The position numbers and the translations under genes were made by a program. From Pedobacter sp. (GTDB lineage: Bacteria; Desulfobacterota; Desulfuromonadia; Desulfuromonadales; Syntrophotaleaceae): a stretch of 64,000 nt of DNA. The notes beneath the pieces are model-generated. The model did no database searches, was not told where the DNA came from, and saw nothing but the letters and a program-made list of their open reading frames with translations. This document shows positions 12,892-62,703 of this stretch, in pieces (positions within the stretch are counted from its first letter, which is position 1; each line of letters opens with the position of its first letter). The stretch covers positions 680,679-744,678 of the forward strand of contig JBFWJC010000001.1 of NCBI GenBank assembly GCA_050253415.1, given 5' to 3'.

Positions 12892-12968
<77 letters not shown>

Positions 12969-39016: not shown

Positions 39017-39034
39017 AAACGGAAGGGTGATTTC

Positions 39035-39919: not shown

Positions 39920-39932
39920 AAGGAGTGCGGCA

Positions 39933-44128: not shown

Positions 44129-44282
44129 AAAGAAAAACTCCTCCTTGTGCCCAGGCAGGAGTGAGCACGAAGAGGAGCATGGTCCTTTGCATGTTCACAT
44201 TTACGATAAATGCGACAGCAACAGTAACGACCGCTTCAGCCCACCTTCCCATAAGCCCGGGGAAGATGATGTGGGATGTCCG

Positions 44283-44445
44283 AAACGGCAGGTATACTGG
44301 CTTGCGAATCATTCTCGGGACCGCCTTCCCAGCATGAGCGCCAGTGGCATGTTGATCCCTCGTCCTCGCTTACAGTGGCGGGTCCGCGGGGGATTTGCAC
44401 CCCTCTTCCCTCTTACGCCCTGAGGCGCCGTCGAACGTATACCGT
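44283..44445 (-). ncRNA. Cobalamin (B12) riboswitch
   Basis: Minus strand AAGAGGGAA-GAGGGGTGCAAATCCCC-CGCGGACCCGCCACTGTAAG...GCCACTG...GGGAAGG...AAGCCAGTATACCTGCC. Confidence 0.93.
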
Positions 44446-44501
44446 AAATGTAACCTTATTGTATAAGATTGTAAAGTAAGTCTAAGGGCTTATAGGAAAA
44501 A

Positions 44502-46588: not shown

Positions 46589-46635
46589 TTTGTACTTCCT
46601 CCCAATCTTTTACATCTGGAATGGTTCCGGGTAAA

Positions 46636-46730
46636 ATCTCCTTTCCAAAAGGGAGGCGCCACTGTTTCCAGCGGAACCCGTCGGCCTGTCGCCATAAGGA
46701 CCTTCCCAGTAGGCAGCGAGGCTCGGAGAT
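46636..46730 (-). ncRNA. Moco/Tuco riboswitch (P3-less, tungsten-cofactor type)
   Basis: Minus strand ATCTCCGAGCC...CCTA...TATGG...GGCCG ACGGG..CCGCTG-GAAA-CAGTGG-CGCCTCCC-TTTT-GGAAAGGAGAT; P1 ATCTCC/GGAGAT; upstream of aor. Confidence 0.85.
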
Positions 46731-46974
46731 TGGTAGTTTCGCATAAATCGCTGATGAAGATGTCAATGAACTTTTCCAAGTAGACACGTTATAACATAAA
46801 ATAGAACGAAAGTTCAATATCGGATGGTGTATACATTTTGCGGCGGCGGGTATTTTTTGCAAAAAAACTGTAAGACCTTGAAAACACACTGGAAAAAAAA
46901 TTAAAATTGATAGCAAACAGTGTGGTTTTTCGATCTGTTTTGCGTTGAATGGCGCGTTTTTTTCACAGCTGACG

Positions 46975-47997
46975 TCATAAAAGCAAAAAAGGGATATAAA
47001 AAAATAGACTGCCGAGAAGAAAAAATGGCGAGAGGTCAAAAGATGTTCGCTGCGGTGGGAGGTCGATGGGGGACACCGCGACCGTTGTGATTTTCTCCAT
47101 GAGTTTGGTGGCGACTTTTTCTGGTTGGTTATCGCCCAAATAGAAATAGCTTCCGCCGGTCGCAGCAGCTATTTCTTCAAGGGGGCGTTGATCGAGTCGG
47201 GTTTTAAGGGGAATGTCCTGACTGTCCACATAAAAGCCGTCGATGTCGGTGGCGCCTTTTCTGCGGATGGGAATAAAGACATCGCTGGTATGACCGACTC
47301 CGATGGTGAATACCGGAGTAACGGATCCTGTTCTTCTGGCAAGAGTCTGCAGAAGCGATGACCGGGTATTTTCAGTGTCTTCGCCATCCGTTATGAGAAC
47401 CACCGCTCGCGCCGGGATTTCTGCCTGGCTGTCGACCATCATCATACCACTGTCGATGGCAGCCAACAGATTACTGCCTGATTCCGTCAGATCGCCAAGA
47501 TCGGTATGGGTGACCATGTAACGCAAAAAGCCCAGGTCACGAGTGGGAGAAACAACCTCGATGCCGTTACGCGCAAAAAAGAACAGACCGACTTTCTCTC
47601 CATCAAGACGTTCGACTATGCTCAGAGCCAATCGCCGCGAGGCATTAAGCCGGTTGGAAAGAGGCGTTACGCGCTCTCCAGGTAGCCGTTGCAGGACCAC
47701 ATCCTCGGCCAGCATCGATTTGCTCACATCAATGCCGATGGCCAGCACCAGGTTGTCGCTGATATTCCCCGATCGCGATACGGTAATGCTGGGTCCTGCG
47801 AGGGCGGTCACAAGACTGGCCAGTCCCAGTAGTGGCAGCAGGCTGCGGCCTGTACGCCGCCAAACCGGCCTGTTGCCAGAATCCGCCCGGAACCGACTCC
47901 GTAAACGACCAAGAAAACGTTCCGTGGCCAGAACCCGCCAACCGATCGGAAGGAGTAGCAGGAGCAGCCAGAACATCTGCGGAGAATTGAATCGCAT
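46975..47997 (-). CDS. Membrane-anchored VWA protein (MxaL/BatB-like)
   Basis: FNSP..WLLLLL N-terminus, MIDAS DVSKSM, LITDGE, IA..TGG.Y, C-terminal TM. Confidence 0.82.
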   Translation of the reverse strand: MRFNSPQMFWLLLLLLPIGWRVLATERFLGRLRSRFRADSGNRPVWRRTGRSLLPLLGLASLVTALAGPSITVSRSGNISDNLVLAIGIDVSKSMLAEDVVLQRLPGERVTPLSNRLNASRRLALSIVERLDGEKVGLFFFARNGIEVVSPTRDLGFLRYMVTHTDLGDLTESGSNLLAAIDSGMMMVDSQAEIPARAVVLITDGEDTENTRSSLLQTLARRTGSVTPVFTIGVGHTSDVFIPIRRKGATDIDGFYVDSQDIPLKTRLDQRPLEEIAAATGGSYFYLGDNQPEKVATKLMEKITTVAVSPIDLPPQRTSFDLSPFFLLGSLFFYIPFLLL

Positions 47998-48006
47998 GTC
48001 AGGGTC

Positions 48007-48807
48007 CTATTTCTCTACCCGGGTTTCCAAAGGAACTCCGGGGGCGAAGCCAGCCACGTCTGGAATAAAAGCTTCGAGCTGTTCCTGAACCTCGGTCAGA
48101 TTTTCCTGCCGGACTTCGCTCAGTCCGATCTTGCGGTATTCGCCGAGGCCGACGATCAATTCCATGTTCCAGCGGGGCAGGGCACGTTCCTGGGAGGAAC
48201 TGCAGGTTGCGTCGACGAGATCGATGGCGGCTTTATAATCATCAATGGCGTCGGACAGGAACTTTGCACCCTTGCGCCCATCCTGTTCAAAATTCAGCAC
48301 GCTGTAGGCAAGCATGACAGACACATTGCCTTTGAGGGTGAGCAGTTTCCAGTCTAGCGATGCAGTTAGCTTTCCCCTGCTTTCCAAGGCTGCGGCGCAA
48401 CTGTCGCGCAGGGCGAGCAATTGTTGGTGAAAAGTCTGCAGTTGATGGCGTTGATCCGAAGCAAGATATCGGTTATTCAAGGCCGCTGAGATTTGCTTGA
48501 AATTGGTAACGGCTTCTTGCCACTGGTTCCAAAGTCGGACGTAGTTGGCCTCGGGTAGCGGTTGGCCAAGAGTTTTCGCCTGGGCGCTGATCTGCTCCAG
48601 TTCGGAAATGACGGCTTGACGGTCCTCGGCTGGGGGCAGGTTTGCCATTCGTGCATTGAGCTTATGCAGGTTTGTCGTTTGTTGCGAACTGTGCCAGTAG
48701 CCGATGGCACCGGCAATCAGCAGCACTATGCCTGCCAATCCCACAGTGCTCAGGGCGATAACTGTGGCGCGTTTGTTTCGCAGAAGGATGTCTGTGAAAG
48801 TAAGCAT
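48007..48807 (-). CDS. Membrane-anchored helical/TPR-like protein (MxaK-like)
   Basis: Single N-terminal TM, helical body, KGN...Y..A...PRWNMEL; lies between two VWA genes. Confidence 0.6.
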   Translation of the reverse strand: MLTFTDILLRNKRATVIALSTVGLAGIVLLIAGAIGYWHSSQQTTNLHKLNARMANLPPAEDRQAVISELEQISAQAKTLGQPLPEANYVRLWNQWQEAVTNFKQISAALNNRYLASDQRHQLQTFHQQLLALRDSCAAALESRGKLTASLDWKLLTLKGNVSVMLAYSVLNFEQDGRKGAKFLSDAIDDYKAAIDLVDATCSSSQERALPRWNMELIVGLGEYRKIGLSEVRQENLTEVQEQLEAFIPDVAGFAPGVPLETRVEK

Positions 48808-48901
48808 GTTTCAGTCCTCGAAGTTGTTGCAAGGCAATTTGTTATACCTTGACCGGTTATTGCCGTGTCCTTTTGGTTTTAACCGAAGCCAGGTGGCTGT
48901 T

Positions 48902-50014
48902 TTAAAGTTTGCGAAGCCGCGGCAGGCTGCGCAGAAGCAGGTGCAGTGCCATAAGTCCAAATCCCATAAGGGCCAGCGTCTGTCGGGTCCAGCGTGGTTG
49001 CAGGGTGATGCGAGTCAGATTCCGATTGCTTTCCAGGATGTCGATCTCTCGGTAGACTTCTTCAATCTGTTCCCGATCCAGACCGCGCGAGGTAACGAAA
49101 ATGCGACCGACGGCAGGTTCGCCGGTTACCGGCTGCATGGCTTTTTCCACCGCTTCGTCGACCTCGCCACCGACCGAAATGATGTAGAAACGCACTCCGA
49201 CCGCTTTCATCAGGGTAATGATGTTGACCAGGTTCGGCAGGGCACCGCTGCGCACGTGGGCGCGCTGGGTCGGTTCGATGCGGCCGTCGGTAAAAAGGAT
49301 AACAGCCATGCCGGTGCCCAGTGCCGCATTGCGGATCTTCTGGGGGATATCGAGCAGTGCTCCCGGTTCGCCGAGCAGAAACTCGCGCATGCCGGCGATC
49401 TGTTCAACGCTCAGGCGGTTTTCCTCGGGCAACATGGAGAAAAATGCCGAAAGGGATAACCATACAGCTTCGGAGGCGTTGGTGCCGCCCCCGGCTCCAA
49501 GTTCCCGGTAGATTCGCGAGTGGTTTTTGCTGCGCACCAGATCGAGTTTGGCTTTGAGCAGATCTTTGTCAAACGTCAGCGGAGCCAGTAGCTTGGCGTA
49601 GCTGGAAAAGGCCACCAAGCCGATGTAATCGTCGCTGCGGCGCATATCGATAAAGGAGCTGATCCCGTCCAGAGCCAGATCGCCCAGAGTCTGATCCGAG
49701 AACCGGCTTACCGGGCGTTTCATGGAGCCGGACAGGTCAAGGGCCAGAAACAGCCATTTCGATTCGATGAATTCCTCTACCGTCTCTTTCGAATAGCCTG
49801 GATTGACCAGGCTAAGGACCAGACAGGCGTATACCAGGCTGAAAAGGATACCGTTGTAATTACGTTTCCAGAATCCCGGCCGCAGACTGACCATGTCCGG
49901 CAAGATGGACGGGAATGGCAGCTTGCGCCGAGTGCGCCGTCGCAGCACCAGGAAAAGGGGTGCCAGCAACAGCAGCAGCAGGGCCAGAGGGTATTGCAGT
50001 TCGAAACCAGGCAT
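48902..50014 (-). CDS. Membrane-anchored VWA protein (MxaC/BatA-like)
   Basis: YPLALLLLLL N-terminus, MIDAS DLSGSM, GLVAFS, PLTFD, GT, LFTDG, VY.EI..LE. Confidence 0.85.
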   Translation of the reverse strand: MPGFELQYPLALLLLLLAPLFLVLRRRTRRKLPFPSILPDMVSLRPGFWKRNYNGILFSLVYACLVLSLVNPGYSKETVEEFIESKWLFLALDLSGSMKRPVSRFSDQTLGDLALDGISSFIDMRRSDDYIGLVAFSSYAKLLAPLTFDKDLLKAKLDLVRSKNHSRIYRELGAGGGTNASEAVWLSLSAFFSMLPEENRLSVEQIAGMREFLLGEPGALLDIPQKIRNAALGTGMAVILFTDGRIEPTQRAHVRSGALPNLVNIITLMKAVGVRFYIISVGGEVDEAVEKAMQPVTGEPAVGRIFVTSRGLDREQIEEVYREIDILESNRNLTRITLQPRWTRQTLALMGFGLMALHLLLRSLPRLRKL

Positions 50015-50040
50015 GGGCACAATCCGGCAGCAGAGGCGGT

Positions 50041-51843
50041 TCAGTGTTTTTCGGGAACGTCCTGCAGCGTTTCTGAGCAGGCCCGCACTTCGGCAATAAG
50101 CTTCCCGGCTTTCTCGGGTAAATCGGCCGGTATGACTGCCTGGTCGCCACGCGCCAGAGCATGATCGATGATGGACAGCACGTCGGCGGCGGATGGGCGG
50201 CATGCGCGGGGCAGTGCATCTTCGATGCGGTGGAAGAAGGCCGTGTGGCTCCCCCCGCGCATGTCCTCGTCAAGCCCTGCAAATTCGGCCAGGTAGTTTT
50301 TCAAGGCTACACCCAAAACGGCCAGTTCTTTTAATCCCAGGTGTTGCTCTGTGGCCAGAACCACTGCGCTTACTGCCTGATATAGGCGGTTCAGGGCGTG
50401 GTTTTCGGGCTGCACGGCCATTTTCTGGCGGCTACGCCGGAGGATGGCTGCCGATGCGCAGACCAGGCCGATGAGAACCAACCCGGCTAACATCAGCATG
50501 GCATGGTGGCGTTTGGCCCCTGTCGCAGCCGCGTCATCCATGCCCGGCAGGGGGGCTGGTTCGGCGACCTGCAGGTCAAATCCCTGCTGGCTTTCCGGGA
50601 TCATCGCGGCGATGCGTACGGGTACTTCGGTAGTCTTGATCAGCTGCACCTTGGTCCTGGGTGCGCCGCTATCTGTGTAATAAACCGGAATGCCCGGGAG
50701 ATTGTATTCGCCGGTGGCATAGATTTTTATCTGTCCGGTAATGCGAATGGGGCTGCGGTTCAGGTCGACGGCGCTTAACGGGACGTCATAGCTGATGTCG
50801 TACAAATTGTGGAAAATGCCACCCGGTTTGAGATTCAGGTTGGCAATGGTGCTCGATTCAATTTTCACCTTGTCGGTAAAGCGAATTTCAAAGGTAAAGG
50901 GGATGGGGGTGCCGGGCATGGCACCATTCATCGCCAGGGAAAACTGTACGCCGACAGGCGGTATCAGAGGCATCAAGACCGGCCAGGCCTGCGCTACGCT
51001 GATGTCCTCGGCCAGCAGGTTGGCAGTCTGCCAGACGCTTTGCCGGCAAGGATCGATGGTGATACTTTGACGGTTGGAGGGCGTTATTTCATCGGTTTCC
51101 ACGGCCTCGATGGCTTGCAGCAGAGCCTGCCGTTGTTGGGGGGAGGCGGCGGTCTTCCAACGGATCGCAATACGTTCCAGGGGAGCATACAGCTGATCAG
51201 CGATTCTCCAGGCAGGGTGTGCGTACTTGACCTGTGGATCCTGCTGTAAACGCGTCATAAGGGTTTGGAAAACTTCCTTCGGCATATCTCTGCGCAGCCG
51301 GTAGGCGGCCATAGCGGGGCCCAACTCCGGGTCGTGAAGGAAGTGACTGAAGTATTCGCCGTACTGTTGGTTGAACGACTCGAAGGATGGCGGTTGGGCA
51401 TTGCTATCCCCCATCTGGAGATTGTCGGATATCTCTGCCGAGTAGCTGTCGGTTGTGTCCTCCGGCAGAGTATCGATTTGCCTCGTTGCATCCATCAATC
51501 GCACCACCAACCAGTCAAGGGCCGGTTGGGGGACGACCCTCTGCCCGTTTTGGTCGTAGAACCATACATCCTCCTGGTAGCTGGACCACAGGCGGTCAAA
51601 GCAGGCGATACGTTCCGCATCAAGGGAGTCTGACGCGGTTTCCGGCTGAGCCTCGGAATCCGTGACTTGTTCGGCGGATACTTCCGCAGTTGTCCCACTT
51701 TGATCAGGCAAGTTTTCTGCTGCCATGGCCGGGACAGCAAACACCAGGAAGAAAACCAGAACCTGGACCAACAGGCTTACCTGCGCAAGGCAGGCAGGGT
51801 GCTTTGTAACTGTACGGGAAGCATTGCGAGGATGTTGTTTCAT
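50041..51843 (-). CDS. Exported membrane-anchored protein (MxaA/BatD-like C-terminal half)
   Basis: Signal peptide ending PAMA, beta-sandwich segment (GEYNLPGIPVYY), TM at ~aa 480-505, short cytoplasmic tail. Confidence 0.6.
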   Translation of the reverse strand: MKQHPRNASRTVTKHPACLAQVSLLVQVLVFFLVFAVPAMAAENLPDQSGTTAEVSAEQVTDSEAQPETASDSLDAERIACFDRLWSSYQEDVWFYDQNGQRVVPQPALDWLVVRLMDATRQIDTLPEDTTDSYSAEISDNLQMGDSNAQPPSFESFNQQYGEYFSHFLHDPELGPAMAAYRLRRDMPKEVFQTLMTRLQQDPQVKYAHPAWRIADQLYAPLERIAIRWKTAASPQQRQALLQAIEAVETDEITPSNRQSITIDPCRQSVWQTANLLAEDISVAQAWPVLMPLIPPVGVQFSLAMNGAMPGTPIPFTFEIRFTDKVKIESSTIANLNLKPGGIFHNLYDISYDVPLSAVDLNRSPIRITGQIKIYATGEYNLPGIPVYYTDSGAPRTKVQLIKTTEVPVRIAAMIPESQQGFDLQVAEPAPLPGMDDAAATGAKRHHAMLMLAGLVLIGLVCASAAILRRSRQKMAVQPENHALNRLYQAVSAVVLATEQHLGLKELAVLGVALKNYLAEFAGLDEDMRGGSHTAFFHRIEDALPRACRPSAADVLSIIDHALARGDQAVIPADLPEKAGKLIAEVRACSETLQDVPEKH

Positions 51844-51873
51844 CGTTTTTTCCTTGGTGTGAACAGGGTCAAA

Positions 51874-52737
51874 TCAGATTCTGGTCGCCAGGCGCCGGGC
51901 AAAAAGGGTGTTGACGCGGGCCTGGATATCCGTAGCACCGACTGGAAGCACCGCGGAGTCGATGCCGACCCCGGCCAGTGCGCGCACGGTGCGTTCCCTG
52001 TCCCGACGCAGCAGGGCGTTGAACTCCTGAAGGCGGGAAAGATCCAGGTCCATTTGCTGGCCCGATTCCATATCCTGAAGCGTCAACAGGCCGCTGTCGA
52101 TGCCGGTCAGCCGGTATTCCGAGTCTTCAAGCACATGCAGGGCCACCATCTCATGGGCGGGAAAACGGCTGTCCGCCGCATCCATCAGACCTTTGAGATA
52201 GCCAAGGTCGGTGTGAAAATCGGAAATGATAACCCCGAGGCAGGAGGCCAGTCGTTTCATGACGAATTCCAGCGCCGGTGCCAGTCGGGTCTGCCGGTTT
52301 TTGGCTGCCGGGGCCTGCTGCAAGGCGTTGACGATGCGGTGAAACTGCCGTGGCGCGGCACTCGGAGGAATCCAGGTCAGGACCTTGTCGGCGAACAGCA
52401 GCAATCCGCAGGGATTGTTGGCGCGCAGGGCGGCGTGGGCCAGGGAAACGGCCAGGTCCTTAGCCATACCGAATTTGTTGCCGAAGTGCATGGAGCGGCT
52501 CACATCGCATATCAGTAGCAGGTTGTAGGCGCTGTCCTTGAGAAACTCACGCACGTGCAGTTCGCCGCTGCGTGCGCAGGCTTTCCAGTCGATACGGCTC
52601 CAGCTGTCGCCGGGCAGGTATTTACGCAACCCCCAGAACTCGTATCCGGTGCCCCGGTCAAGCCCGGCCCAGTCGCCCGCCATGTCGTTACGTGGGGGGT
52701 GTTTGAGCAGGATATCGAAACGATAGGGAGGTTTCAT
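51874..52737 (-). CDS. DUF58 family protein (MxaS-like)
   Basis: G.EF..LR.Y.PGD....IDWKA.AR, DVSRSM.FG, ISDF. Confidence 0.92.
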   Translation of the reverse strand: MKPPYRFDILLKHPPRNDMAGDWAGLDRGTGYEFWGLRKYLPGDSWSRIDWKACARSGELHVREFLKDSAYNLLLICDVSRSMHFGNKFGMAKDLAVSLAHAALRANNPCGLLLFADKVLTWIPPSAAPRQFHRIVNALQQAPAAKNRQTRLAPALEFVMKRLASCLGVIISDFHTDLGYLKGLMDAADSRFPAHEMVALHVLEDSEYRLTGIDSGLLTLQDMESGQQMDLDLSRLQEFNALLRRDRERTVRALAGVGIDSAVLPVGATDIQARVNTLFARRLATRI

Positions 52738-52764
52738 GGCTCAGAGTTGCTCCGTGAGACTGTC

Positions 52765-53784
52765 TTAAGCATAAGGGTCCACCGAACGTACGATATCCCG
52801 CAACAGGTCGGCGGCATGAATGCCCTCGAGAATCGCCGAGTCGCTGAGGATCAGGCGATGTCCGAGAACCTGGGCGGCACAGGCGTCGACATCTTCAAAG
52901 GCCACATAGTCCCGCCCGCGCAAAAAGGCAAATCCTTTGCAATAGGCGATAATATGCTCGCCGGCACGCGGCGAGACTCCCACCGAGACGTAATCGCGTA
53001 CCGCCGGAGGCGCTACGTTTGACTGGGGGCGGGTGCGCAGGCAGATTTCGAGAATATAAGCCACTACGGCCTCTGAAACGGTGACGTGATGAGCAACATG
53101 CTGCTGCATGGCGACGACTTCGTCCGGTTGCAGCAGGCACGGTACCGCTTTTTGCAACTCTTCGAAGTTGGTGCTCTTTTTCCTGAGCAGTTGTTCCTCA
53201 AACTCCCTGGGAGGGTAGGTCAGGGTCACCTTGGCGATAAACCGGTCGAGTTGCGCCTCCGACAGGGGGTAGGTGCCGAGCTGTTCCACCGGATTCATGG
53301 TGGCCAGCACCATGAACAATTCAGGCAGTTGGTATTGGTCGCGGTCGATGCTGACCCGCTTTTCCTGCATCGCCTCAAGCAGCGCCGATTGCACCTTGGG
53401 CGCCGCGCGGTTGATCTCATCAGCCAGCAGAATGTTGCAGAACACCGGCCCCTGATGAAAGGTGAAGGCGCCGGTAGCCTGGTTGAAAACGGTGGTGCCG
53501 GTGATGTCGCTGGGCAGCTTGTCCGGCGTGAATTGAATGCGCTTGAATTCGCCACCGATGGTGCGGGCGAAGGTGCCCACCGTGAGGCTTTTTGCCAGCC
53601 CCGGCACCCCCTCCAGCAGAATGTGACCCCGGGACAGAAGAGTGCAGATAATGGCTTCGATCATCGCTTCCTGGCCGATGATGATTTTGCCGATTTCCTC
53701 TTCGACCTGCTGAATCTTGGTGCGGAACGTTTCCGCCGAAAAGGTTGCTGCAGTCGGGGAGGTATTGTTGGCGGTAGGATTCAT
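52765..53784 (-). CDS. moxR: MoxR-proper AAA+ ATPase (MxaR-like)
   Basis: HILLEGVPGLAKS, RIQFTPD.LPSD, LLADEINRA, ATMNP.EQ.GTY.L.EAQLDRF. Confidence 0.93.
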   Translation of the reverse strand: MNPTANNTSPTAATFSAETFRTKIQQVEEEIGKIIIGQEAMIEAIICTLLSRGHILLEGVPGLAKSLTVGTFARTIGGEFKRIQFTPDKLPSDITGTTVFNQATGAFTFHQGPVFCNILLADEINRAAPKVQSALLEAMQEKRVSIDRDQYQLPELFMVLATMNPVEQLGTYPLSEAQLDRFIAKVTLTYPPREFEEQLLRKKSTNFEELQKAVPCLLQPDEVVAMQQHVAHHVTVSEAVVAYILEICLRTRPQSNVAPPAVRDYVSVGVSPRAGEHIIAYCKGFAFLRGRDYVAFEDVDACAAQVLGHRLILSDSAILEGIHAADLLRDIVRSVDPYA

Positions 53785-53842
53785 GACAGTGCTGCCTCCA
53801 GCTATAACGGTCGTCGACCGGCTGTTGGTCGGTCGAAAAGAT

Positions 53843-54898
53843 TTAGAAAAATACAAATTTGCGGCGGTCACGGATGATCAGGTAGAGAAAAAACGGCCCG
53901 CCGAGCAGTGCGGTCAATACTCCGATACGCAGCCCGCCGCTGCCCCAGACACGCACCACGCAGTCCGAATAGATTACCAGAGCTCCCCCCAGCACACCGG
54001 CGGCAGGGATAAGCACCCGGTTGTCCGAGCCGACAAAGCTGCGCATGATGTGCGGCGCGACCAGGCCTACGAAGCCGATGGCGCCGGATACTGCAATGGC
54101 GCCGCCGGTCAGCAACGCGGAGATAAACAGCAGCATGTTGCGGGATAGGGTTACATTGACGCCGAGGTTGGCGGCGATTTCCTCGCTGAGCATCATGATG
54201 TTGAGATCGCGGGCGTAAAGCATCGACCACAAGGTCCCGATCAGAGTGATGATAAGCACGATATGCACATGCTGCCAACTGCGGTTGGTCAGATCCCCCA
54301 TCAACCAGCCCACGATCTGGCGTGCCATCTCGAACTGGTCCGTCGACAGCACGATGACCAGCGATGTCAGGGCGCCGAAAATAGCATTGAAGGCGATGCC
54401 GGCCAGCAGCAACGTATAGCGCGAGGTCAGTCCGCCGCTGGTGGCGATGCCCAGCACGATCAGCATCGACAAAAAGGCGAACAGGATGGCAAACGACGGT
54501 ACCGCGTAGATGCTGGTGGCGGCCAGACCGGCGTAGATGGCCGTTACCGCACCCAGCGCCGCGCCGGAACTGGTACCGATGACCCCCGGACTGGCCATGG
54601 GGTTTTTGAAGATGCCCTGCATGATGGTCCCCGCGGCGCCCAGCGCGAATCCGACCAACGCACCGGTCAGGGTGCGTGGAACCCGTCCCAGCCAGACGAT
54701 GGCTTCCAAAGCTGGATCCGTCACCATATCGAGACGCAGAACCTTGGCCGCCAGGATGCGGCCGATATCCTGCAGGCTGACCTCCCAGGGGCCGATGCGG
54801 ACCGACAGAAACATGCCGACAAGTAGCAGTGCCAATGCGGCCGAGCATGCCATCAGGCTGGTGATAAAAAAATGCCGGCGATCAGAACGACGATTCAT
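53843..54898 (-). CDS. BtuC/FecCD-type ABC permease (probably corrinoid)
   Basis: RVPR, QGIFKNPMASP..IG.SSGA, W.MG, G.IGFVGL..PH. Confidence 0.9.
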   Translation of the reverse strand: MNRRSDRRHFFITSLMACSAALALLLVGMFLSVRIGPWEVSLQDIGRILAAKVLRLDMVTDPALEAIVWLGRVPRTLTGALVGFALGAAGTIMQGIFKNPMASPGVIGTSSGAALGAVTAIYAGLAATSIYAVPSFAILFAFLSMLIVLGIATSGGLTSRYTLLLAGIAFNAIFGALTSLVIVLSTDQFEMARQIVGWLMGDLTNRSWQHVHIVLIITLIGTLWSMLYARDLNIMMLSEEIAANLGVNVTLSRNMLLFISALLTGGAIAVSGAIGFVGLVAPHIMRSFVGSDNRVLIPAAGVLGGALVIYSDCVVRVWGSGGLRIGVLTALLGGPFFLYLIIRDRRKFVFF

Positions 54899-55955
54899 AA
54901 ATTAATCCCGCCAGGTAGTTGATGCTGGCGACCAAATATTGTGAAGAACTAAGTAAGTAAACCGTTGGCATCTTGCGGATGTTCTTCTGCCGTACCGCGC
55001 GTGCCGTGGCCAGGATCTTCTGGCTGTAAAGTTGCAGGTCAAAGGTGCTTTCTTCCGGCACGATAATCACATCCGGATTCCATTGCAGCAGGGTTTCGTA
55101 GTCAATCTGCTTGAAGTTGTGAATCCCCTTAACTGCGGCGATGTTGGTCACTCCCAAAGCCTGGCACATGCTGTTAAATGTGGTGCCCGAACCAGCCACG
55201 TAGGCCATATTATCGTAATACAGCACGGTCGGCGGTTTGCTCACGGGCCCTCTTCGCTGCCGCACCACTGCTTGGATATCGCGCAGCTTTTCGGTCATGA
55301 CGGAAACCAGGCGCTGCGCCGAGGCTTCTTCGCCGGTCAGGCGTCCGGCCAGCACAATCTGATCCTTGATGGCATCAAGATCGTCGAAAAACCCGAACTG
55401 CGCCAAAGGCACATGCGCGGTGCGCAGCTGGTGCAGAAAGTTTTCGTTGGAAAAGAACGACGCCAACACCAGATCCGGACGGTAGCCGATGACGATTTCC
55501 GCATCGTCGGTGCCGTAGGTCGGCAGGTCGGCCGGCAGCAGCGGTGCCAAAAACGAGAACTGTCGATCCTTGCAGCTTTTGTGCACAGCGACCAGGCGCT
55601 CATGCGGTACAATGGCCCACAAAATTTCCGTCAGACCTGTTGCGTGGGGAATAATGCGCTGCGGCTGCCGCGCAAGGGTAATCGATCGTTCCTCATCATG
55701 TTTCTGGTCTGAAACGAAATCATAGCGTACAAAGCGATAGGATACGGTGCGGGGATAGCTCTCCGCCGTAACAGGTGTCGGTTGCCGGGTGTCGCTCAGT
55801 GATCCCATCAGCGCATCCATCTCCAGAGGAAACTTGCGGGCACCGCGGGCGTTTTCCGCCGCGGTACAAGCGCCTCCCAGCAGCATCGTCAGCAACGCAG
55901 CTCCCAAAATCCCTGTCAAGGCATGCTTAACGATAGAACAACAGCGAAACGCCAT
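54882..55955 (-). CDS. BtuF/FecB-type periplasmic substrate-binding protein
   Basis: PQRII, TEILWA, E......PDLV, E.LLQWNPDVII, AVRQK; start uncertain. Confidence 0.85.
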   Translation of the reverse strand: MAFRCCSIVKHALTGILGAALLTMLLGGACTAAENARGARKFPLEMDALMGSLSDTRQPTPVTAESYPRTVSYRFVRYDFVSDQKHDEERSITLARQPQRIIPHATGLTEILWAIVPHERLVAVHKSCKDRQFSFLAPLLPADLPTYGTDDAEIVIGYRPDLVLASFFSNENFLHQLRTAHVPLAQFGFFDDLDAIKDQIVLAGRLTGEEASAQRLVSVMTEKLRDIQAVVRQRRGPVSKPPTVLYYDNMAYVAGSGTTFNSMCQALGVTNIAAVKGIHNFKQIDYETLLQWNPDVIIVPEESTFDLQLYSQKILATARAVRQKNIRKMPTVYLLSSSQYLVASINYLAGLIYESSF

Positions 55956-56703
55956 GTTCGGTTGCGATTTCCTCCACGCCGACATGGAAAACCTCCTTGA
56001 TGCGTTGTTCGGCAAATCCTTGTTCGGCCTTGCCGTGGTAATAGACGCTGCCCTGTTGCAGCAGGGTTACGGTGTCGCAGTAACGTCGCGCCAGGTCGAG
56101 ATCGTGGATACTGATGAGAATGGTTTTACCCGCATCGCGCAGGCTGGTCAGCAATTCCATGATTTCGAGCTTGTGCAGAATATCCAGGGCGCTGGTCGGC
56201 TCGTCGAGCAGAATGATCGGTGCTTCGGTGGCCAGCGCGCGCGCTAGACTGACCAACTGCGCCTCGCCGCCCGACAGTTCGTTGATAAGCCGGTTGCGGA
56301 AGATGTCGGTGCCGGTGACCACCAGGGCCTGGTCGATGATATCCATATCTTTCTGGCGCAGCCACTGCAGCCGTTTCAGGTGCGGATGGCGGCCCATGGC
56401 GACAAAGTCGGATACCATAATGGAAAAATCGAGGCGCGTGTCCTGCTGTACCAGGGTCACCATCTGGCTGAGAGATTTGCGGGGGATGCGGCGATAATCC
56501 CGCCCCTCGATCAAAACCCGGCCGTTTTGCGGTTCCCAGATGCGGCAGATGTTGCGCAGCAGCGTGCTCTTGCCGGAACCGTTGGGCCCGATCAGTCCAT
56601 GGATGCCCCCGGCGGCAAAGTGGCAGCTGATGTCTTTAAGAATAGCATGGCCACCGATGGAAAAATCGAGCTTGTCAATCTGCAGGATCGGTTGATCGGT
56701 CAT
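55927..56703 (-). CDS. BtuD/FecE-type ABC ATP-binding protein
   Basis: GPNGSGKST, V.MGR.PH, LSGGE, LLDEPTSALD, HDL.LA. Confidence 0.92.
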   Translation of the reverse strand: MTDQPILQIDKLDFSIGGHAILKDISCHFAAGGIHGLIGPNGSGKSTLLRNICRIWEPQNGRVLIEGRDYRRIPRKSLSQMVTLVQQDTRLDFSIMVSDFVAMGRHPHLKRLQWLRQKDMDIIDQALVVTGTDIFRNRLINELSGGEAQLVSLARALATEAPIILLDEPTSALDILHKLEIMELLTSLRDAGKTILISIHDLDLARRYCDTVTLLQQGSVYYHGKAEQGFAEQRIKEVFHVGVEEIATEHGVSLLFYR

Positions 56704-57521
56704 TCTTCCTCGTGTTCCCGGCTTTTAAGAGTCAGTTTCCAGGCCAGCGGCAAGCTGAATTTGGATACGGCGGTCAGCAGCGTGCCGCACAGCACGATGC
56801 TCCACATGATGCCGTGCCCCAGCCGGTCCTGAAACAGGCCGGTGGTTAAAGTCGTTCCCCATAACAGCGTCAACCCGGCGAATAACTGAATATTCTGGCT
56901 CATGGCATGAATGCCCCAGAAATTTTCGGAAATCCGGCTCAATCGGCCATTGCGCAATTTAATTTCAATGAGTTTAAACCAGATGCGTCCTTCCGCCACC
57001 TGGGCCGAGCCGTCGCAGATGTGATGCAACAGGTACAGGGCAATGAGGACATAACGTCCCGCAGCCATATCGCCGAACAGCCCGGTGAACAAGGGCGGGT
57101 AACACAGCAACAGCAATATCGCTCCCAGCGCCTGCCCACCACCCACCAGGGCCATGGCTCGCACCAGGCCTCGTACCTGGGTGTTGATATCCGGAAAGCT
57201 TTCCAGATAATCGACAAACGAAGAAACCTTGACGTTGCTGATAAACGTGATCCCCGGATAAAAGTATTTTGTCAGCACGCCAAGAATCGCCGCCACCCTG
57301 AATTCGGTCTGGGCCATGGAGAACATGGTGTAGAGCACCGCCCCTTCAAGAATGCTCTTGCCCAAAGTGTACAACAGGTTGCCGATCTCGCCATAGCGAT
57401 AATAAGGACTTAGCCCCATGGCCTGGAACCAGAGGGAAGTTTTATGCGCGACATCGCGCCACAGGGAGCGGGGTGCTGGGCGTGGATTGGCGATGGCAGT
57501 TTTCACGGCGGTCTCAGGCAT
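56700..57521 (-). CDS. Uncharacterised multi-pass inner membrane protein
   Basis: About 6 hydrophobic segments; ATGA overlap with the ABC ATPase gene. Confidence 0.7.
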   Translation of the reverse strand: MPETAVKTAIANPRPAPRSLWRDVAHKTSLWFQAMGLSPYYRYGEIGNLLYTLGKSILEGAVLYTMFSMAQTEFRVAAILGVLTKYFYPGITFISNVKVSSFVDYLESFPDINTQVRGLVRAMALVGGGQALGAILLLLCYPPLFTGLFGDMAAGRYVLIALYLLHHICDGSAQVAEGRIWFKLIEIKLRNGRLSRISENFWGIHAMSQNIQLFAGLTLLWGTTLTTGLFQDRLGHGIMWSIVLCGTLLTAVSKFSLPLAWKLTLKSREHEEE

Positions 57522-57691
57522 AGGCGTATCCCGGTTGCGTTAGAAAGCCGGGCCGCTTGAAGGCGGCCCGACCTGGAATTTTGCAGAGTCCAGCGCTTCG
57601 ACCGAATGCGGGGGGTCGAAAAGCTAATGGTGAGGTGGGGGGAAGAGATGGCCCGGGGCGAACCCCGGGCCGATTACAAAGGGTAGAGAGC

Positions 57692-59959
57692 TTACATTTC
57701 CTTCAGCAGTTTAACCGTCTGGCGGGCTGCTTCAGCAGGAACCAGACCGGTATCGGAAATACCGGACAAAACCTTGGAAGAGTCGTGGTCGACAGTACCT
57801 GCTTTAGCCCAGGTGCTGGGAGCGACTTTGACCAGATAAGCGGAGAAGGCATGATGGCCGCTACCCGGGCGTTCGCCGATGAGATGAACAATGGCCTTAG
57901 GAGTGGTGCCAGCTTTGGTAAACAAAACTTCACCAGCTTTGTAGCCAGCGCGAACGCGGCCGCCGGTCACGACGATGTTTTTATCGGACAGGGTCAATCC
58001 GGCTTTTTTGCACTGTTTTTTCAGTTCGTTCAGGTAAGGCATCAGGTGCCCATCATCCATGATCGCCTTGGCGTTCAGACCGTCGGAGATGACAACCTGT
58101 ACGTCAGGGGCTTTGTTGCCCCAAGAGGCAGACAGTTTGCCCAGGGTGGCAACAGCCGCGTCGGACAACTCTTCACCGGTGCCCGGTGCGGAGATGTAGT
58201 TTTCGCGATCGTGAGCCTGAGATTTAATGCTCACGGCATTGGGGATGGAACCGATGAATTCAGGAGTGAACTCGGCCCACAGGCTGATTTTGGCGTCGTC
58301 ATACAGGTCGTGGATACGCTTGTTGGTGACAGGTTCCAGATCCCATACGTTTTCGCCATAGCCTACGGCCAGGTCGACACCGCGGCTGCGTACGTTTTTA
58401 ATGGATTGCTGGCCTTCAGCATAGATTTCCTTGAAGGAGCGGGTGTCACCTTTGGCCTGACGGAATTTGTAGTAAACCCAGGCAGGATCGCCAAAGTGCT
58501 TGGTCGGTTTGCCGTTGGCGTCGATGACTTCGATTTTTTTGTAGAAGTCCCACATGGCGTCGTTGACTTTAAAGCCGAATTTTTCGCGCAGGCGCACGTG
58601 GTCCTGGAAACCGGTGGTCAGGTAGCTGAGCATCGGGTCGTTACGGGTCGGCAGAGCCATCAGGTAGGCCGGGTTGGCCGGGGCGATCTGATCCTGGCAC
58701 CAGGCCAGGTCGTCGAGGGTTACAGGCATATGCAGGGTCGAGCAGATGTCGAGACCCAGCACCAGGCCGTGCAGTTTACCCATGACGATGTCTTCCAGAC
58801 AGGCGCGTACCAGCTGTTCGCGGGTTTTGAAGACCTCGGGACCGATGAAGCCGGCCACGTCGTTGACGTGCAGCCATACCTGATCCTCGGTGACGCCCTT
58901 GGCTTTGGCGATTTCCTGTTTCAGGGCGCGAGAGAACCCGTATTTACGGGACTCGTGGACGACCATGTCGAAGCCGTGGCCGTGACCGTTGGTGTAGTCG
59001 GCACCCTGGCCGGTTTCGAAATAGAGGCCGTAGGGACCCTTACGCATTTTTGCGTAGTCGATCATTTTCTGGATGGTCAGGTCGAAGGTCTTGTTGGCGC
59101 TTTCGGTACCGGCGAGGCTCTGGAACCAGATAGCGGTGGAGCCGGGCTTGGCTTCTTCCGCGGCAGCCTGACCGTCGATGTGGGACAAAACACACCAGGG
59201 GATGGTTTTTTCCAGGCCGAAAGCATCGACGATTTCTTTAAGACCTTCTTCGACGCGCAGGGTTGCTTCGAGTTGGCTGTCGACCGGGTTGGTACCGATG
59301 ACGATGTCACCGACGCCATAGGCGAAGCCATTAAGCGTCTGCATCTGAATGTCTTCTTTGTTGTCGGTCGGCGAGTTGGGCTGAATGCGGGCGCCGATGT
59401 AACCCTTAGCGCCGATTTTGGTGCCGGGCAGGGTGTTGAAAATCTTCTGGCCAATGCGGGTCAGTTCGGCGTTGGACATCAGTTTGACCACGGAACCGAT
59501 CACATCGCTGTGCAGACCGCCCATAATGGCTTTGATGTCTGCTTCGGGCTTGGTGAGCAGAAAGTTTTTCAGCTCGCCCATGGTCATGTTTTTGATTTTG
59601 TTGTATTTAGCCTTGTCGGTGGTTTGGCGGATCAGGGTGTCCTGGCCATCCACGAACAGCGAATGATCGTTGAGGTCCTTGATCTTGGTGTTGGCCAGCA
59701 ATTTGCGGGCGTTTTCGCGGTCCGCTTCGGTGTCTGCCGCTACCCCGAGGGCCTCGTCGCCTTCTTTAAAGGCATTGGCGGCGCCGATTACCTGCTGATA
59801 GGTGGTTTGGTCAAACTTCCCTTTGGTGCGATTGATGTACTGCATGACGTCTTCACCGGGCTTGACGCTGCCGATGGTGACGGCTCCGGCCATGCTGGCC
59901 AGAAAGGTCATTACCAGTGCGCCGGTAATGCCTGCCACGAATTTCCCCTTTTGTAACAT
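57692..59959 (-). CDS. eutBC: Ethanolamine ammonia-lyase, fused large+small subunit (EutB-EutC), with N-terminal Sec-type signal peptide
   Basis: EutB motifs RIQPN, IGTNP, FQSLAG, YFETGQG, GFIGPE, LED..MGKL, MLSY.TT; EutC motifs DVQVVISDGL, RV, LIGERPG; GGAGG RBS; N-terminus MLQKGKFVAGITGALVMTFLASMAGA. Confidence 0.92.
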   Translation of the reverse strand: MLQKGKFVAGITGALVMTFLASMAGAVTIGSVKPGEDVMQYINRTKGKFDQTTYQQVIGAANAFKEGDEALGVAADTEADRENARKLLANTKIKDLNDHSLFVDGQDTLIRQTTDKAKYNKIKNMTMGELKNFLLTKPEADIKAIMGGLHSDVIGSVVKLMSNAELTRIGQKIFNTLPGTKIGAKGYIGARIQPNSPTDNKEDIQMQTLNGFAYGVGDIVIGTNPVDSQLEATLRVEEGLKEIVDAFGLEKTIPWCVLSHIDGQAAAEEAKPGSTAIWFQSLAGTESANKTFDLTIQKMIDYAKMRKGPYGLYFETGQGADYTNGHGHGFDMVVHESRKYGFSRALKQEIAKAKGVTEDQVWLHVNDVAGFIGPEVFKTREQLVRACLEDIVMGKLHGLVLGLDICSTLHMPVTLDDLAWCQDQIAPANPAYLMALPTRNDPMLSYLTTGFQDHVRLREKFGFKVNDAMWDFYKKIEVIDANGKPTKHFGDPAWVYYKFRQAKGDTRSFKEIYAEGQQSIKNVRSRGVDLAVGYGENVWDLEPVTNKRIHDLYDDAKISLWAEFTPEFIGSIPNAVSIKSQAHDRENYISAPGTGEELSDAAVATLGKLSASWGNKAPDVQVVISDGLNAKAIMDDGHLMPYLNELKKQCKKAGLTLSDKNIVVTGGRVRAGYKAGEVLFTKAGTTPKAIVHLIGERPGSGHHAFSAYLVKVAPSTWAKAGTVDHDSSKVLSGISDTGLVPAEAARQTVKLLKEM

Positions 59960-60082
59960 TCTGTTACCTCCGTCTCGTTTGATGGGGGTGCTATCCGGTC
60001 TGCGACAAACGTCGCAGGCGGAGCATGATGAGGTTAAAGTGTGGGAGATGTCTTTGATGATCAGCAACACCTCCCACAGCGC

Positions 60083-61201
60083 TTACTTACGCAGCTGCTT
60101 TGCTGCTTCCCACATTTCGTTGAAGGCCTGCTCGGTCTCGTCGCTGAGAACTCGCCACAGGGCTACGGTTTTGAAGTAGGCTTCGTCGCCTACGTGGAAC
60201 ATAGCTTTTTCCTCGGCATTGAGGATGTCGCCGGTGTCGGCCATGACAGGTGAAACACCCTGAGATTTGACAACGTCAGCCTGGCGTGCGGGATCGAGGG
60301 AGAAGTTGATCCATTCTTCGGCCAGGGTTTTGGTCATGTCCTTGGCGCCGGCGCCCACATACCAAGCGTCGATCCAGGCTGTACCGCCTTCGGCAGGGGT
60401 TGCCAGGCGCCAGTTGCCGCCTTTAAGGTTGGCGGCCTGGGCGGCGAAACCCCAGGTGGTGGCCAGTGCCAGTTCGGGGAATTCATCCGGATTGGCGGCG
60501 CCGTCCCACAGGCTCTTGGCATTTTTGGCCAGATCGTTGAGTTTTTCCTGAACCTTGGCGCGGTCGAGCTTGTTGATGTCGAAGATATCTTCATAGCCGT
60601 AACCGAGCGCCAGAGCCGAGATCCAGACATTAACCTTGGGGAAGTTATTGTTGATGGTGTACTGACCGGCATACTGGGGTTCCCACAGTACGTTCCAGCT
60701 GGTCGGGGCTTGGGCTACCTTGTCGCGGTTATATGCCAGACCGTAGGGGCCGCAGTTGTAAGGCACTCCGTAGCGCACGCCGTTATAGAAAGGCGTCTGG
60801 TCGTTGCGGAATACTTCCATCATTTTGGCCAGGTTGGGGATGTTGTTCACATCCACGGGCTGCACGTATTGCTGGCCTTCCTGGTAGGAGAAGAAACGCG
60901 GGATCTTGGGCAGTTCGATCGGCGGAGAGATCAAATCCGCGGTGTTGTCTTTGACGGCCTGGAAGAATTCGTCCTGGTCGGTCGGGTTGAAAATCTCGAC
61001 ATTGACATCGACGTTGTATTTGTCTTTGACCAGTTTCTGGAAATCCTCTACGTAGGGTTTGGCATAGCCGCCCCAGCAGGTAATGCGCAATGTTTCTTTT
61101 TGGGTCTCTGCCTTTTTGGTGCAGGCGGGGGTCAACAACAGGGCGCCTGCGGCCACTACGGCTGCGGTTGCGGAAACGGCTCCCCACAAAGTTTTCTTCA
61201 T
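60083..61201 (-). CDS. PotD/PotF-like (polyamine/amine) solute-binding lipoprotein
   Basis: Lipobox LTPAC, W.GY, YGVPY..G..GLAYN, PTSW..LW, P.EG...WID, A..WINF; GGAGG RBS. Confidence 0.85.
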   Translation of the reverse strand: MKKTLWGAVSATAAVVAAGALLLTPACTKKAETQKETLRITCWGGYAKPYVEDFQKLVKDKYNVDVNVEIFNPTDQDEFFQAVKDNTADLISPPIELPKIPRFFSYQEGQQYVQPVDVNNIPNLAKMMEVFRNDQTPFYNGVRYGVPYNCGPYGLAYNRDKVAQAPTSWNVLWEPQYAGQYTINNNFPKVNVWISALALGYGYEDIFDINKLDRAKVQEKLNDLAKNAKSLWDGAANPDEFPELALATTWGFAAQAANLKGGNWRLATPAEGGTAWIDAWYVGAGAKDMTKTLAEEWINFSLDPARQADVVKSQGVSPVMADTGDILNAEEKAMFHVGDEAYFKTVALWRVLSDETEQAFNEMWEAAKQLRK

Positions 61202-61371
61202 GATGTTCCTCCTGGCATGCGTCGTTTTCAGGAAAAGGGTGGTCCGGTTTGTACGCCAAAAATTCCGAGTTGCCTTTGTGGGCGAGCTGCGGAAATGGGG
61301 GCGAGGGCAATTCGTTCGCCTCTCGCCCCGTTGGTTGATCGGGGCGGTTGACGCCCATACTTCTTCTGAAC

Positions 61372-62109
61372 TTAGAAAGTAAAGGTCAGGTTAAGGGCCG
61401 CGGCCGATTCGGTGTCGATGAGCTCCTTGGCAGCGCTGCTGATCGGCGACGAGAAGATGACGATCGGGCTGAGGGTCAGCTGGTCGGTCAGGGCGTAATC
61501 AAGGCTGGCGCTCAGTTCGTAGTTATGCCATCCGGAGTAGTCGGCTACGGTGCCATCGGCATGCTGGTTGTAAGAAACCAGGGCGCCGAGATTCAAAGTA
61601 GTGTTGGGGACCCACTGGGTAAGGTCGAAGCTGTGGCTGACGTCAAAGCTGAAGAACAGGCCGTCTTCTTCGGCGCGGTCCCAGTCGTAAGAGATTTTCA
61701 GGTTCGGCGAAAGAAGGGTGTTGAGGGTGACGGTCGCGAACAGTTCGTTGGTGTCTTCCCCTTCGATCATGTACCAGATATCTCCGATCGATACGGAAAT
61801 AAGATCATTCACATCAAAGGCATAGGTCAGGATGACGTCGGTTTCGTTGAGCTCGCCAGCTTTCCAGTTGTCGCCACTGGTCAGCTGCCAGTTGTGCCAG
61901 GTGCTGAGGGTGAAACCGCCGCCGAGGGTCAGGTCCATGCCTGCCTGGATGGTCGGGCGGGAGTCACTCAGGTTAAATCCACGCCACATGTACTTGTCCC
62001 AGATGCCGGCGTAGGCATCGCCTTCAACTTCAATGGACGCCTGGGCCTGGCCGATAAAGCCGGCAGTCATCATAAAGACGGCGAGTAACAACACACTCCA
62101 CTTTTTCAT
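61372..62109 (-). CDS. Outer-membrane beta-barrel protein (TorF/TIGR02001-like putative porin)
   Basis: Signal peptide ending AQA, KYMWRG..L...P.IQ, E.D....Y, amphipathic strands, C-terminal LNLTFTF. Confidence 0.8.
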   Translation of the reverse strand: MKKWSVLLLAVFMMTAGFIGQAQASIEVEGDAYAGIWDKYMWRGFNLSDSRPTIQAGMDLTLGGGFTLSTWHNWQLTSGDNWKAGELNETDVILTYAFDVNDLISVSIGDIWYMIEGEDTNELFATVTLNTLLSPNLKISYDWDRAEEDGLFFSFDVSHSFDLTQWVPNTTLNLGALVSYNQHADGTVADYSGWHNYELSASLDYALTDQLTLSPIVIFSSPISSAAKELIDTESAAALNLTFTF

Positions 62110-62703
62110 AGGTTTTTACCTCCATATGGGGATGAAAAAGGGACGGGAGTTCTATCGGGCCACCCGAGGAATTCCTGTCCCACGAAAGCATATGCAAGGG
62201 CCCGGAACCCAAAGGCGCACCGGAAGCCGTTTGTCTTGAATGAAGGAGCGGTCGAGGCCGCAGACAGAGCTGTGCGGCGGCACGGGATGGTGTCGGTAGG
62301 TGGTGGATTGTGAAGCAATAAAGAATCAGGAATCGTGCGAAGCGTGTGTCGTTGGACCGGGGCAGGGCAGAACAACCATGGCAAAAGACGGCGCCAGCCT
62401 GTGTTATCGGCTGTCACCTTGACGTCTTTCCACATGTTCGCCACCAACCTGGTCATAATATACCGTGTCTGAGTAGGAGTGGCCGGCTTCCCACCGGATG
62501 TTCTTTTGCAACTCGAAGCGTTCACAGCAGAACAGGTTTTTAAGGGGTGCCGGTAAACGAAGTTCATCACCGTACTGAGGATAAAATACCTTATCAGGGG
62601 TATGCAGGAGTATCCCCCAACGGAGGGGAATTTAACTCACCAATTGGGGGGATTAAGGCAGGTTAGGGCAGTGAGAAGGGGGCATTCAAGAGGGTTACGG
62701 GGG

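Follow-up and report, generated by a model that had tools for sequence, protein, structure and literature searches.

In the present study, we analyzed a 64,000-nt window of the Pedobacter sp. genome (GCA_050253415.1, contig JBFWJC010000001.1; Syntrophotaleaceae in GTDB), in which a 273-aa membrane protein, named MP273 here, and the three genes of an ATP-binding cassette (ABC) transporter follow the gene for a fused ethanolamine ammonia-lyase, EutBC. We found that MP273 and this ABC orthologue group go with EutBC proteins bearing a signal for the general secretory (Sec) pathway, and not with those bearing a signal for twin-arginine translocation (Tat). The comparative evidence supported a proposed cofactor loop, in which the module would supply and recover corrinoid for an enzyme loaded in the periplasm, with MP273 as the candidate exporter and the ABC system as the importer; we give this explanation a little less than an even chance. 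The genes at the centre of the analysis are as follows, with coordinates as positions in the window:

57692..59959, minus strand, fused EutB-EutC ethanolamine ammonia-lyase (Pfam EutB 3.9e-146, EutC 2.5e-33)
56700..57521, minus strand, MP273, a 273-aa predicted inner-membrane protein with no Pfam or NCBIfam family and the fold of half a major facilitator superfamily (MFS) transporter
55927..56703, minus strand, ABC ATPase of a type II importer (Btu/Hmu/Fhu-type), 258 aa (ABC_tran, PF00005, 3.8e-31)
54882..55955, minus strand, substrate-binding protein, Peripla_BP_2 (PF01497, 2.6e-24), with a signal peptide
53843..54898, minus strand, FecCD-family permease, 351 aa (PF01032, 3.1e-88, model positions 1-311 of 311)

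The genes of the MP273-ABC neighbourhood share one strand (minus). The initial annotation had described MP273 as joined to an ABC ATPase through an ATGA overlap, with a binding protein and a permease following, between eutBC and moxR, with cob genes upstream and btuB-tonB downstream. This layout was recovered in full: the ATGA joining the MP273 stop to the ATPase start is present in the sequence, Pfam matches and open reading frame (ORF) coordinates placed the three transporter genes between moxR and eutBC, the latter being a fusion, and cbiJ and a corrin methylase gene were found upstream of the cluster and btuB-tonB downstream. By ORF coordinates, the ATPase and binding-protein genes overlap by 29 nt, and the binding-protein and permease genes by 17 nt. 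The open frame of the binding protein spans 54882-56015, and its likely ATG at 55955 gives a protein of 357 aa.

The window EutBC scored 645.7 bits against the NCBIfam EutB model, above the cut-off of 554. From its likely start, the protein has a basic n-region, a hydrophobic core, and an AxA site, with no twin arginine, and it is predicted from these features to be exported to the periplasm via Sec. The Sec pathway exports unfolded chains, and the Tat pathway exports folded, cofactor-loaded proteins. The signal type was read for 65 EutBC N-termini by eye and with a regular expression, not with a dedicated predictor. Every complete EutBC copy next to MP273 had a Sec-type signal peptide. The EutBC of locus L014 was flagged by the regular expression for an RR pair lying before the probable start codon, and it was counted as Sec-like. 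Nine N-termini (L075, L076, L078, L079, and L083-L087), from genomes of four families, carried clear Tat motifs (SRRxF-like) and less hydrophobic cores. A reading of the EutBC N-terminus as a microcompartment targeting peptide was rejected, as the signal is a classical hydrophobic one with an AxA site. A third fused form with 36% identity and no signal at all was observed in L080.

The distribution of the genes was examined in a sample of 401 genomes of the phylum, in which only full-length fused EutBC proteins with at least 55% identity were counted. MP273 was found in 16 genomes and fused EutBC in 20; 14 genomes held both, and six held EutBC only. The two genomes with MP273 only were fragmented assemblies belonging to a clade in which the cluster is split. 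A further sample of 151 genomes added four EutBC-only genomes, and the ten consisted of the nine Tat-type genomes and one genome with a Sec-like EutBC, G395. MP273 was detected in none of these ten at E ≤ 1, although the same model readily detects it elsewhere, and the nine Tat-type EutBC genes had no MP273, ABC, or MoxR gene nearby. The profile of the binding protein matched at 475-574 bits over the full length in all four of the Sec/MP273 genomes examined, whereas all five Tat genomes tested lacked the orthologue and gave 26-70 bits for the generic domain only. In a maximum-likelihood tree built quickly from 63 complete EutBC sequences, after incomplete or interrupted matches had been dropped, the Tat label required two changes, with one Tat clade nested within the Sec-type sequences, and G395 stood among the Sec-type sequences that have MP273. 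In these samples, the profile against signal-peptide eutBC that the initial annotation proposed showed MP273 tracking Sec-type EutBC. The possibility raised there, that MP273 is widespread in genomes without exported B12 enzymes, was not borne out, as 14 of the 16 MP273 genomes hold a fused EutBC and the other two are fragmented. The accessory genes track Sec export, and Tat-type genomes do without them, although the genes on the substrate side (porin, PotD-like protein, and AOR) can remain there. On the simplest reading, MP273, this ABC system, and probably the MoxR/VWA set would serve to load the lyase with its cofactor, or to turn the cofactor over, in the periplasm.

Beyond the genes listed above, the neighbourhood comprises the following features of the window:

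61372..62109, minus strand, putative outer-membrane porin of the TorF/Gcw_chp family
60083..61201, minus strand, PotD-like periplasmic binding protein (SBP_bac_6), a conserved cluster member
52765..53871, minus strand, MoxR AAA+ ATPase (Pfam)
46975..53871, minus strand, Bat-like set, conserved downstream of the ABC genes
46622..46740, minus strand, molybdenum/tungsten-cofactor riboswitch (61.1 bits), preceding the oxidoreductase gene below
44855..46588, minus strand, aldehyde:ferredoxin oxidoreductase (AOR), the cluster end
44268..44447, minus strand, cobalamin riboswitch, the sole one in the window, ahead of btuB-tonB and not of the ABC genes
42194..44128, minus strand, btuB, preceded by the cobalamin riboswitch
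41204..42166, minus strand, tonB, after btuB

The Bat-like set consists of MoxR, DUF58, a 600-aa protein with a signal peptide and a C-terminal transmembrane (TM) segment, a VWA membrane protein, a 266-aa anchored protein, and a second VWA membrane protein. A scan with one genome per species, mapped by tblastn with the window proteins, yielded 70 loci, and because the same gene order recurs in these loci of other genomes, the arrangement is not a matter of chance. Among loci whose upstream flank exceeded 1.5 kb, 54 of 59 had fused EutBC immediately upstream of MP273. The ABC ATPase came immediately downstream in 56 of the 60 loci whose downstream flank exceeded 0.8 kb, and MoxR farther downstream in 41 of the 49 where it exceeded 5 kb. 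ABC genes were missing from four loci (L007, L009, L013, and L017), each a second copy made up of porin, PotD-like protein, EutBC, and MP273. EutBC was missing from five loci, which formed one clade, where MP273 and the ABC genes follow Rrf2 and cysteine desulfurase genes. In one locus of this clade, a 31-aa remnant of the EutC C-terminus lies between the cysteine desulfurase gene and MP273, just ahead of the latter (L041, ~8841-9170; the same place as 1501-1593 in L074), which marks a rearrangement that moved EutBC elsewhere, and three of the five genomes carry a full fused EutBC at another place, followed by AOR. In L072, which belongs to this clade, the PotD-like gene adjoins the relocated EutBC. 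When the cluster splits, MP273 keeps with the ABC genes, and the PotD-like protein, as seen in L072, keeps with EutBC. MP273 and the ABC genes were found without the MoxR set in L029, L041, L057, and L058. Tat-type EutBC loci are stand-alone except for L083 and L084, which have AOR, TorF porin, and PotD-like genes around EutBC and lack MP273, ABC, and MoxR genes. Because these two loci keep the AOR, porin, and PotD-like genes without MP273, MP273 is not needed for handling the substrate or product. AOR was also observed to flank EutBC in several related loci, Tat-type ones included.

To the initial annotation, MP273 was a protein of about six TM helices with no recognizable family. The AlphaFold2 model, with a predicted local distance difference test (pLDDT) score of 90.2 and a predicted template modelling score of 0.85, agreed with the first point and placed six long TM helices after an N-terminal helix. 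The second point held for sequence families, with no match in Pfam (E ≤ 0.001) or NCBIfam, and was refined by the fold, which corresponds to half of an MFS transporter. The Pfam models of the ethanolamine permeases EutH and Eat were likewise unmatched at E ≤ 0.001. A large protein collection contained 269 homologues of MP273; no Pfam domain was found in any of the 120 listed, and all named homologues are "hypothetical", including Pcar_0490 of Syntrophotalea (Pelobacter) carbinolica. An exhaustive profile search retrieved only 29 cluster representatives, with all relatives uncharacterised. When the model was compared with 48,161 chains by VIA-align, all 50 top rows were MFS proteins, each aligned over one six-helix half, and the best match was LAT4 (Z 17.8, root-mean-square deviation (rmsd) 3.2 over 209 residues). 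Across these 50 rows, which include LAT4, LmrP, ferroportin, and FLVCR2, superposition on one MFS domain covered ~190-210 residues at Z 13-18 and an rmsd of 3-4 Å. MP273 differs from these proteins in having six TM helices per gene and no MFS Pfam match. Moreover, MFS sequence models and the signature motif were unmatched, and in the alignment the TM2-TM3 loop lacks the basic motif. Foldseek, which the initial annotation had suggested for this protein, gave no PDB match at E ≤ 0.001 and only weak MFS rows; a profile search of the PDB with the MP273 alignment gave no matches at E ≤ 10, and no usable match was obtained from the ESM Atlas. MP273 represents a new protein family whose modelled fold, one six-helix MFS half, is already known.

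The two halves of an MFS protein, which together supply twelve helices around a central cavity, meet through TM2 and TM5. In the homodimer prediction, MP273 scored 0.71 against 0.00 for the best control. Of 30 solved one-chain pairs, 20 attain this mark, compared with 1 of 23 single chains; the runs shared at least 88% of contacts, with a partner pLDDT of at least 83. The predicted symmetric interface sets TM2 (89-108) against TM5' (199-217), and MP273 is accordingly modelled as a homodimer formed through the usual MFS domain interface. Invariant polar residues are located inside TM1, TM2, and TM4 (E45, K85, D104, E107, H167, Q174, E177, and R179). H166 and C169 are each conserved in 90% of sequences, and the alignment contains an HH-x-C/D-G motif. 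Because the invariant polar residues sit within TM helices, MP273 suits a carrier better than an anchor. In the sequence and the model, the N-terminus, the TM4-5 loop, and the C-terminal tail carry basic residues, which were read as pointing to a cytoplasmic placement of these parts. A role as a CcdA-like thiol shuttle was rejected, since 2 of 20 sequences have another residue in place of one of the two conserved cysteines and the model resembles an MFS protein. Distant relatives of 570-720 aa (P0135, P0137, P0138, P0143, and others) were also observed; they have an MP273-like six-helix core flanked by soluble domains of ~270 aa at the N-terminal side and ~110 aa at the C-terminal side, match no Pfam family, and lack the HH motif.

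The ABC system belongs to the type II importer class (FecCD/Btu/Hmu/Fhu), with a permease, a cluster-A binding protein with an export signal, and an ATPase in one operon. The best NCBIfam match of the ATPase was the corrinoid ABC ATPase PRK09536 (230.7 bits, cut-off 537), followed by a haem ATPase at 214.4 bits; against BtuD it scored 119.3 bits (cut-off 281). The best match of the permease was the archaeal BtuC PRK09535 (262 bits, cut-off 461), and its score against PRK03784 was 202.6 bits (cut-off 334). Models for haem, F420-0, hydroxamate, and citrate systems came close behind the corrinoid ones. The binding-protein model (pLDDT 90.8) had as fold relatives RhuT (7.4e-18, 26% identity), BhuT, 4hn9, and HmuT. 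Neither the sequence nor the fold tells a corrinoid ligand of the binding protein apart from haem or a siderophore. A conserved N-terminal extension of ~60 aa adds a helix and a β-hairpin ahead of the Peripla_BP_2 fold. The extension residues (~40-95) contain the segment PLDM..L...LS.VRG...WPR.I.Y...YDF, which is missing from generic paralogues in Tat-type genomes. The ABC genes form a new orthologue group of a known class.

In comparison with known transporters, the system resembles BtuCD-BtuF in having the same three parts, in the corrinoid models that top the NCBIfam matches of the permease and ATPase, and in its position among cob genes and btuB. It differs in that its scores fall below the equivalog cut-offs, BtuF stands at a low rank among the relatives of the binding protein, no riboswitch lies ahead of the genes, the binding protein carries the extension described above, and the orthologue group is confined, among the genomes tested, to those with Sec-type EutBC. 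The nearest solved relatives of the permease and binding protein belong to the HmuUV-T/BhuUV-T/RhuT systems, and haem and corrinoid are both tetrapyrroles; unlike those systems, the window cluster has no haem-related context and is linked to a B12 enzyme. Apart from this system, the genome has a single true FecCD system, in an unrelated cluster (G000:C1:8000-24000, L082). There it is accompanied by a radical-SAM protein with a fused Peripla_BP_2 domain, FmdE, methyltransferases, and a TonB-dependent receptor, beside a ModE-like regulator, and it may be a metallophore system.

Cobalamin riboswitch control of BtuCDF is usual, although not universal. No cobalamin riboswitch was found ahead of the present operon, nor in any of the seven other diverse related loci scanned, and hence it is no scavenging system induced by a lack of B12. 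A promoter and terminator scan of 53500-62800 gave 5 versus 4.0 and 8 versus 9.7 in shuffled sequences, respectively, and no transcription units could be read from it. In two marine-sediment metatranscriptomes from one study, short contigs 90-99% alike covered EutBC and a small part of the ATPase, and none reached MP273, the binding protein, or the permease, although such contigs cannot rank expression. The EutBC stop and the MP273 start lie 170 nt apart (57522-57691, minus strand), and in this spacer two GC-rich hairpins were seen by eye; they were not listed by the consensus terminator scan and might attenuate the downstream genes relative to the enzyme. A search for EutA found no full-length protein and only a 45-residue match, and no PduO-type enzyme was found. 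The genome carries a second copy of the ABC-less kind (porin, PotD-like protein, EutBC, and MP273) at a distance of 30 kb, with a cobalamin riboswitch and cob genes after it, and two features of this block are as follows:

G000:C1:767761-767944, minus strand, cobalamin riboswitch directly after the second EutBC-MP273 copy, ahead of cob genes
G000:C1:758178-758696, minus strand, second CobA-type adenosyltransferase, within the supercluster

The lack of a full-length EutA, the second CobA-type enzyme, and the lack of a PduO-type enzyme fit cofactor loading or turnover in the periplasm. According to the proposed mechanism, EutBC exported unfolded through Sec would have to receive adenosylcobalamin (AdoCbl) in the periplasm. 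The MP273 homodimer would move corrinoid, made and adenosylated in the cytoplasm, outward; the second cobA copy belongs to the supercluster. The ABC importer would return spent or free corrinoid for re-adenosylation, and the MoxR/VWA set may replace the missing EutA reactivase. From the architectures of the two transporters, we infer export for MP273 and import for the ABC system. The initial annotation had already proposed a corrinoid loop for an exported ethanolamine ammonia-lyase. The Sec-type signal of EutBC and the co-occurrence of MP273 and the ABC genes with it spoke for this proposal, which the evidence supported in part; the corrinoid ligand and the transport of cobalamin by MP273, with its direction, are putative, and the riboswitch is absent ahead of the operon. 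A more specific version, which we consider doubtful, would make MP273 the first dedicated bacterial cobamide exporter, a homodimeric half-MFS protein handing AdoCbl to a Sec-exported apo-lyase, and would combine it with the BtuCDF-like importer, the cobA paralogue, and MoxR/VWA proteins in place of EutA into a maturation and recycling pathway.

The alternatives differ mainly in what MP273 would carry, if anything. It was suggested for P. carbinolicus in 2012 (in the accessible part of PMC3543383) that such a transporter serves corrinoid and the membrane proteins take up substrate; extended to the window, the ABC genes would provide general BtuFCD-like corrinoid uptake, and MP273, together with the PotD-like protein, would take up ethanolamine or choline or carry a product such as ammonium. 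The adjacent btuB-tonB and cob genes agree with this explanation, as do the location of the only other FecCD system of the genome in a different cluster (TonB receptor, FmdE, and radical-SAM) and the duplication of MP273 together with porin, PotD-like protein, and EutBC. However, a predicted periplasmic lyase would not need substrate uptake, Tat-type loci keep the porin, PotD-like, and AOR genes without MP273, and in the split clusters MP273 stays with the ABC genes while the PotD-like gene stays with EutBC. In addition, the five Tat-type genomes lacking the binding-protein orthologue still need B12, and general uptake would sit poorly with an operon that no riboswitch precedes. We therefore regard this explanation as unlikely.

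Import of haem, a siderophore, or another chelate by the ABC system, with MP273 as a ferroportin-like carrier of a divalent metal (e.g., Co2+) feeding corrin synthesis, seems very unlikely to us. It would account for the haem and iron-chelate binders nearest to the binding protein and for HmuU as the nearest solved permease, ferroportin homologues were among the fold matches of MP273 (Z 14.4 and 14.1), TM4 contains conserved His, His, Cys/Asp, and Glu, and P. carbinolicus lacks cbiMNQO according to the accessible part of PMC3543383. Yet MP273 tracks Sec-type EutBC and not cob genes, the need for cobalt or iron would be equal in Sec- and Tat-type EutBC genomes, and the cluster also occurs in loci labelled Geobacteraceae, a family that carries cbiMNQO according to the same part of that paper. 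The Rrf2-IscS neighbours in one clade, moreover, follow the rearrangement that left the EutC relic. Alternatively, MP273 could be a dock or subunit of a MoxR-DUF58-VWA (Bat-like) machine that folds, anchors, or reactivates EutBC, with AdoCbl arriving via BtuB and the ABC system clearing the periplasm. The frequency of MoxR among the loci with enough downstream flank, the membrane spans or signal peptides of several Bat-like-set members, the failure to find a full-length EutA, and the one-to-one correspondence of MP273 copies with EutBC copies would all suit such a machine. The polar residues in the TM helices and the MFS-like dimer suggest a carrier instead of an anchor, and MP273 and the ABC genes persist in the four loci without the MoxR set; we judge this role distinctly unlikely.

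Several results also weighed against periplasmic cofactor supply by MP273 and the ABC system. All three ABC parts fell below the NCBIfam corrinoid cut-offs. The nearest solved relative of the permease was HmuU (8.6e-52), followed by FhuB, MolB, and BtuC (2e-43), and the binding protein was nearest to haem and iron-chelate binders by both sequence and fold, with V. cholerae BtuF at rank 16. An MFS-like fold is uninformative on substrate or direction, AdoCbl is large for a 12-helix carrier, and the high dimer score may reflect the likeness of the MP273 model to solved MFS proteins. Genomes with two EutBC copies keep two MP273 copies and often one ABC set (L007, L009, L013, L017, and L081), a pattern equally compatible with cofactor hand-off and with specificity for a partner or substrate. 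G395, 99% complete in 320 contigs, carries a Sec-like EutBC on an 8-kb contig without MP273 and has no binding-protein orthologue (32 bits), which indicated that the accessory set is either not strictly required or unassembled in this genome. Because the Tat and Sec genomes are related among themselves, the comparison amounts to about two independent contrasts and not nine. The periplasmic location of EutBC is itself a prediction from its N-terminus.

The gene set was known from P. carbinolicus in 2012, and the export logic is new here. The accessible portions of Aklujkar et al. (2012; PMC3543383) described duplicated eutBC fusions in P. carbinolicus with multitransmembrane proteins, a corrinoid-like "metal ABC transporter", VWA proteins, and an ATPase, and stated that eutA is absent. 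The multitransmembrane proteins were suggested there to take up ethanolamine or choline, and Table S2 listed Pcar_0466 and Pcar_0490 as "conserved hypothetical" and Pcar_0465 as "metal ABC transporter". The same portions made no mention of an EutBC signal peptide or periplasmic cofactor supply. The eutBC clusters of P. carbinolicus (Pcar_0466/0490 and neighbours) contain the same genes in the same order as the window. A literature search that left most subscription journals outside its range found nothing relevant beyond PMC3543383 for ethanolamine ammonia-lyase with periplasm, signal peptide, or MoxR, and no periplasmic cofactor-delivery pathway for a B12 enzyme. The combination with twin-arginine gave nothing related, and the cobalamin exporters among the titles listed were eukaryotic ABC proteins only. 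In the accessible part of a 2026 Salmonella study (PMC13532332), cobamides are said to "somehow cross the inner membrane".

For the exit of cobamides from the bacterial cytoplasm, the cluster offers a concrete candidate exporter with a natural control, as the Tat-exported relatives do without it. The cluster also suggests that an AdoCbl radical enzyme works in the periplasm, where the lyase may shield the cytoplasm from acetaldehyde in another way than microcompartments do. In cytochrome c maturation, the apoprotein passes through Sec, and its cofactor arrives by a separate route. EutBC, whose Sec form comes with the accessory genes and whose Tat form lacks them, mirrors this separate delivery, although there is no sequence relation and the cofactor proposed here is a corrinoid. 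If MP273 is an exporter, the module would be to an extracytoplasmic B12 enzyme and its corrinoid what the maturation system is to cytochrome c.

Other features of the window were also observed. A 154-aa ORF at 62106-62570 (minus strand), in the gap between cbiJ and the porin gene, matched no family and was recognizable only in the closest relatives, L001 and L003; it may be no gene, and the stretch could be the regulatory region of the operon. An S-adenosylmethionine riboswitch (14688-14796, minus strand) and a tRNA gene (12895-12968, minus strand) were located elsewhere, and a complete Mla (MlaEFDAC-like) lipid-transport operon was found at 36831-40571 (plus strand).

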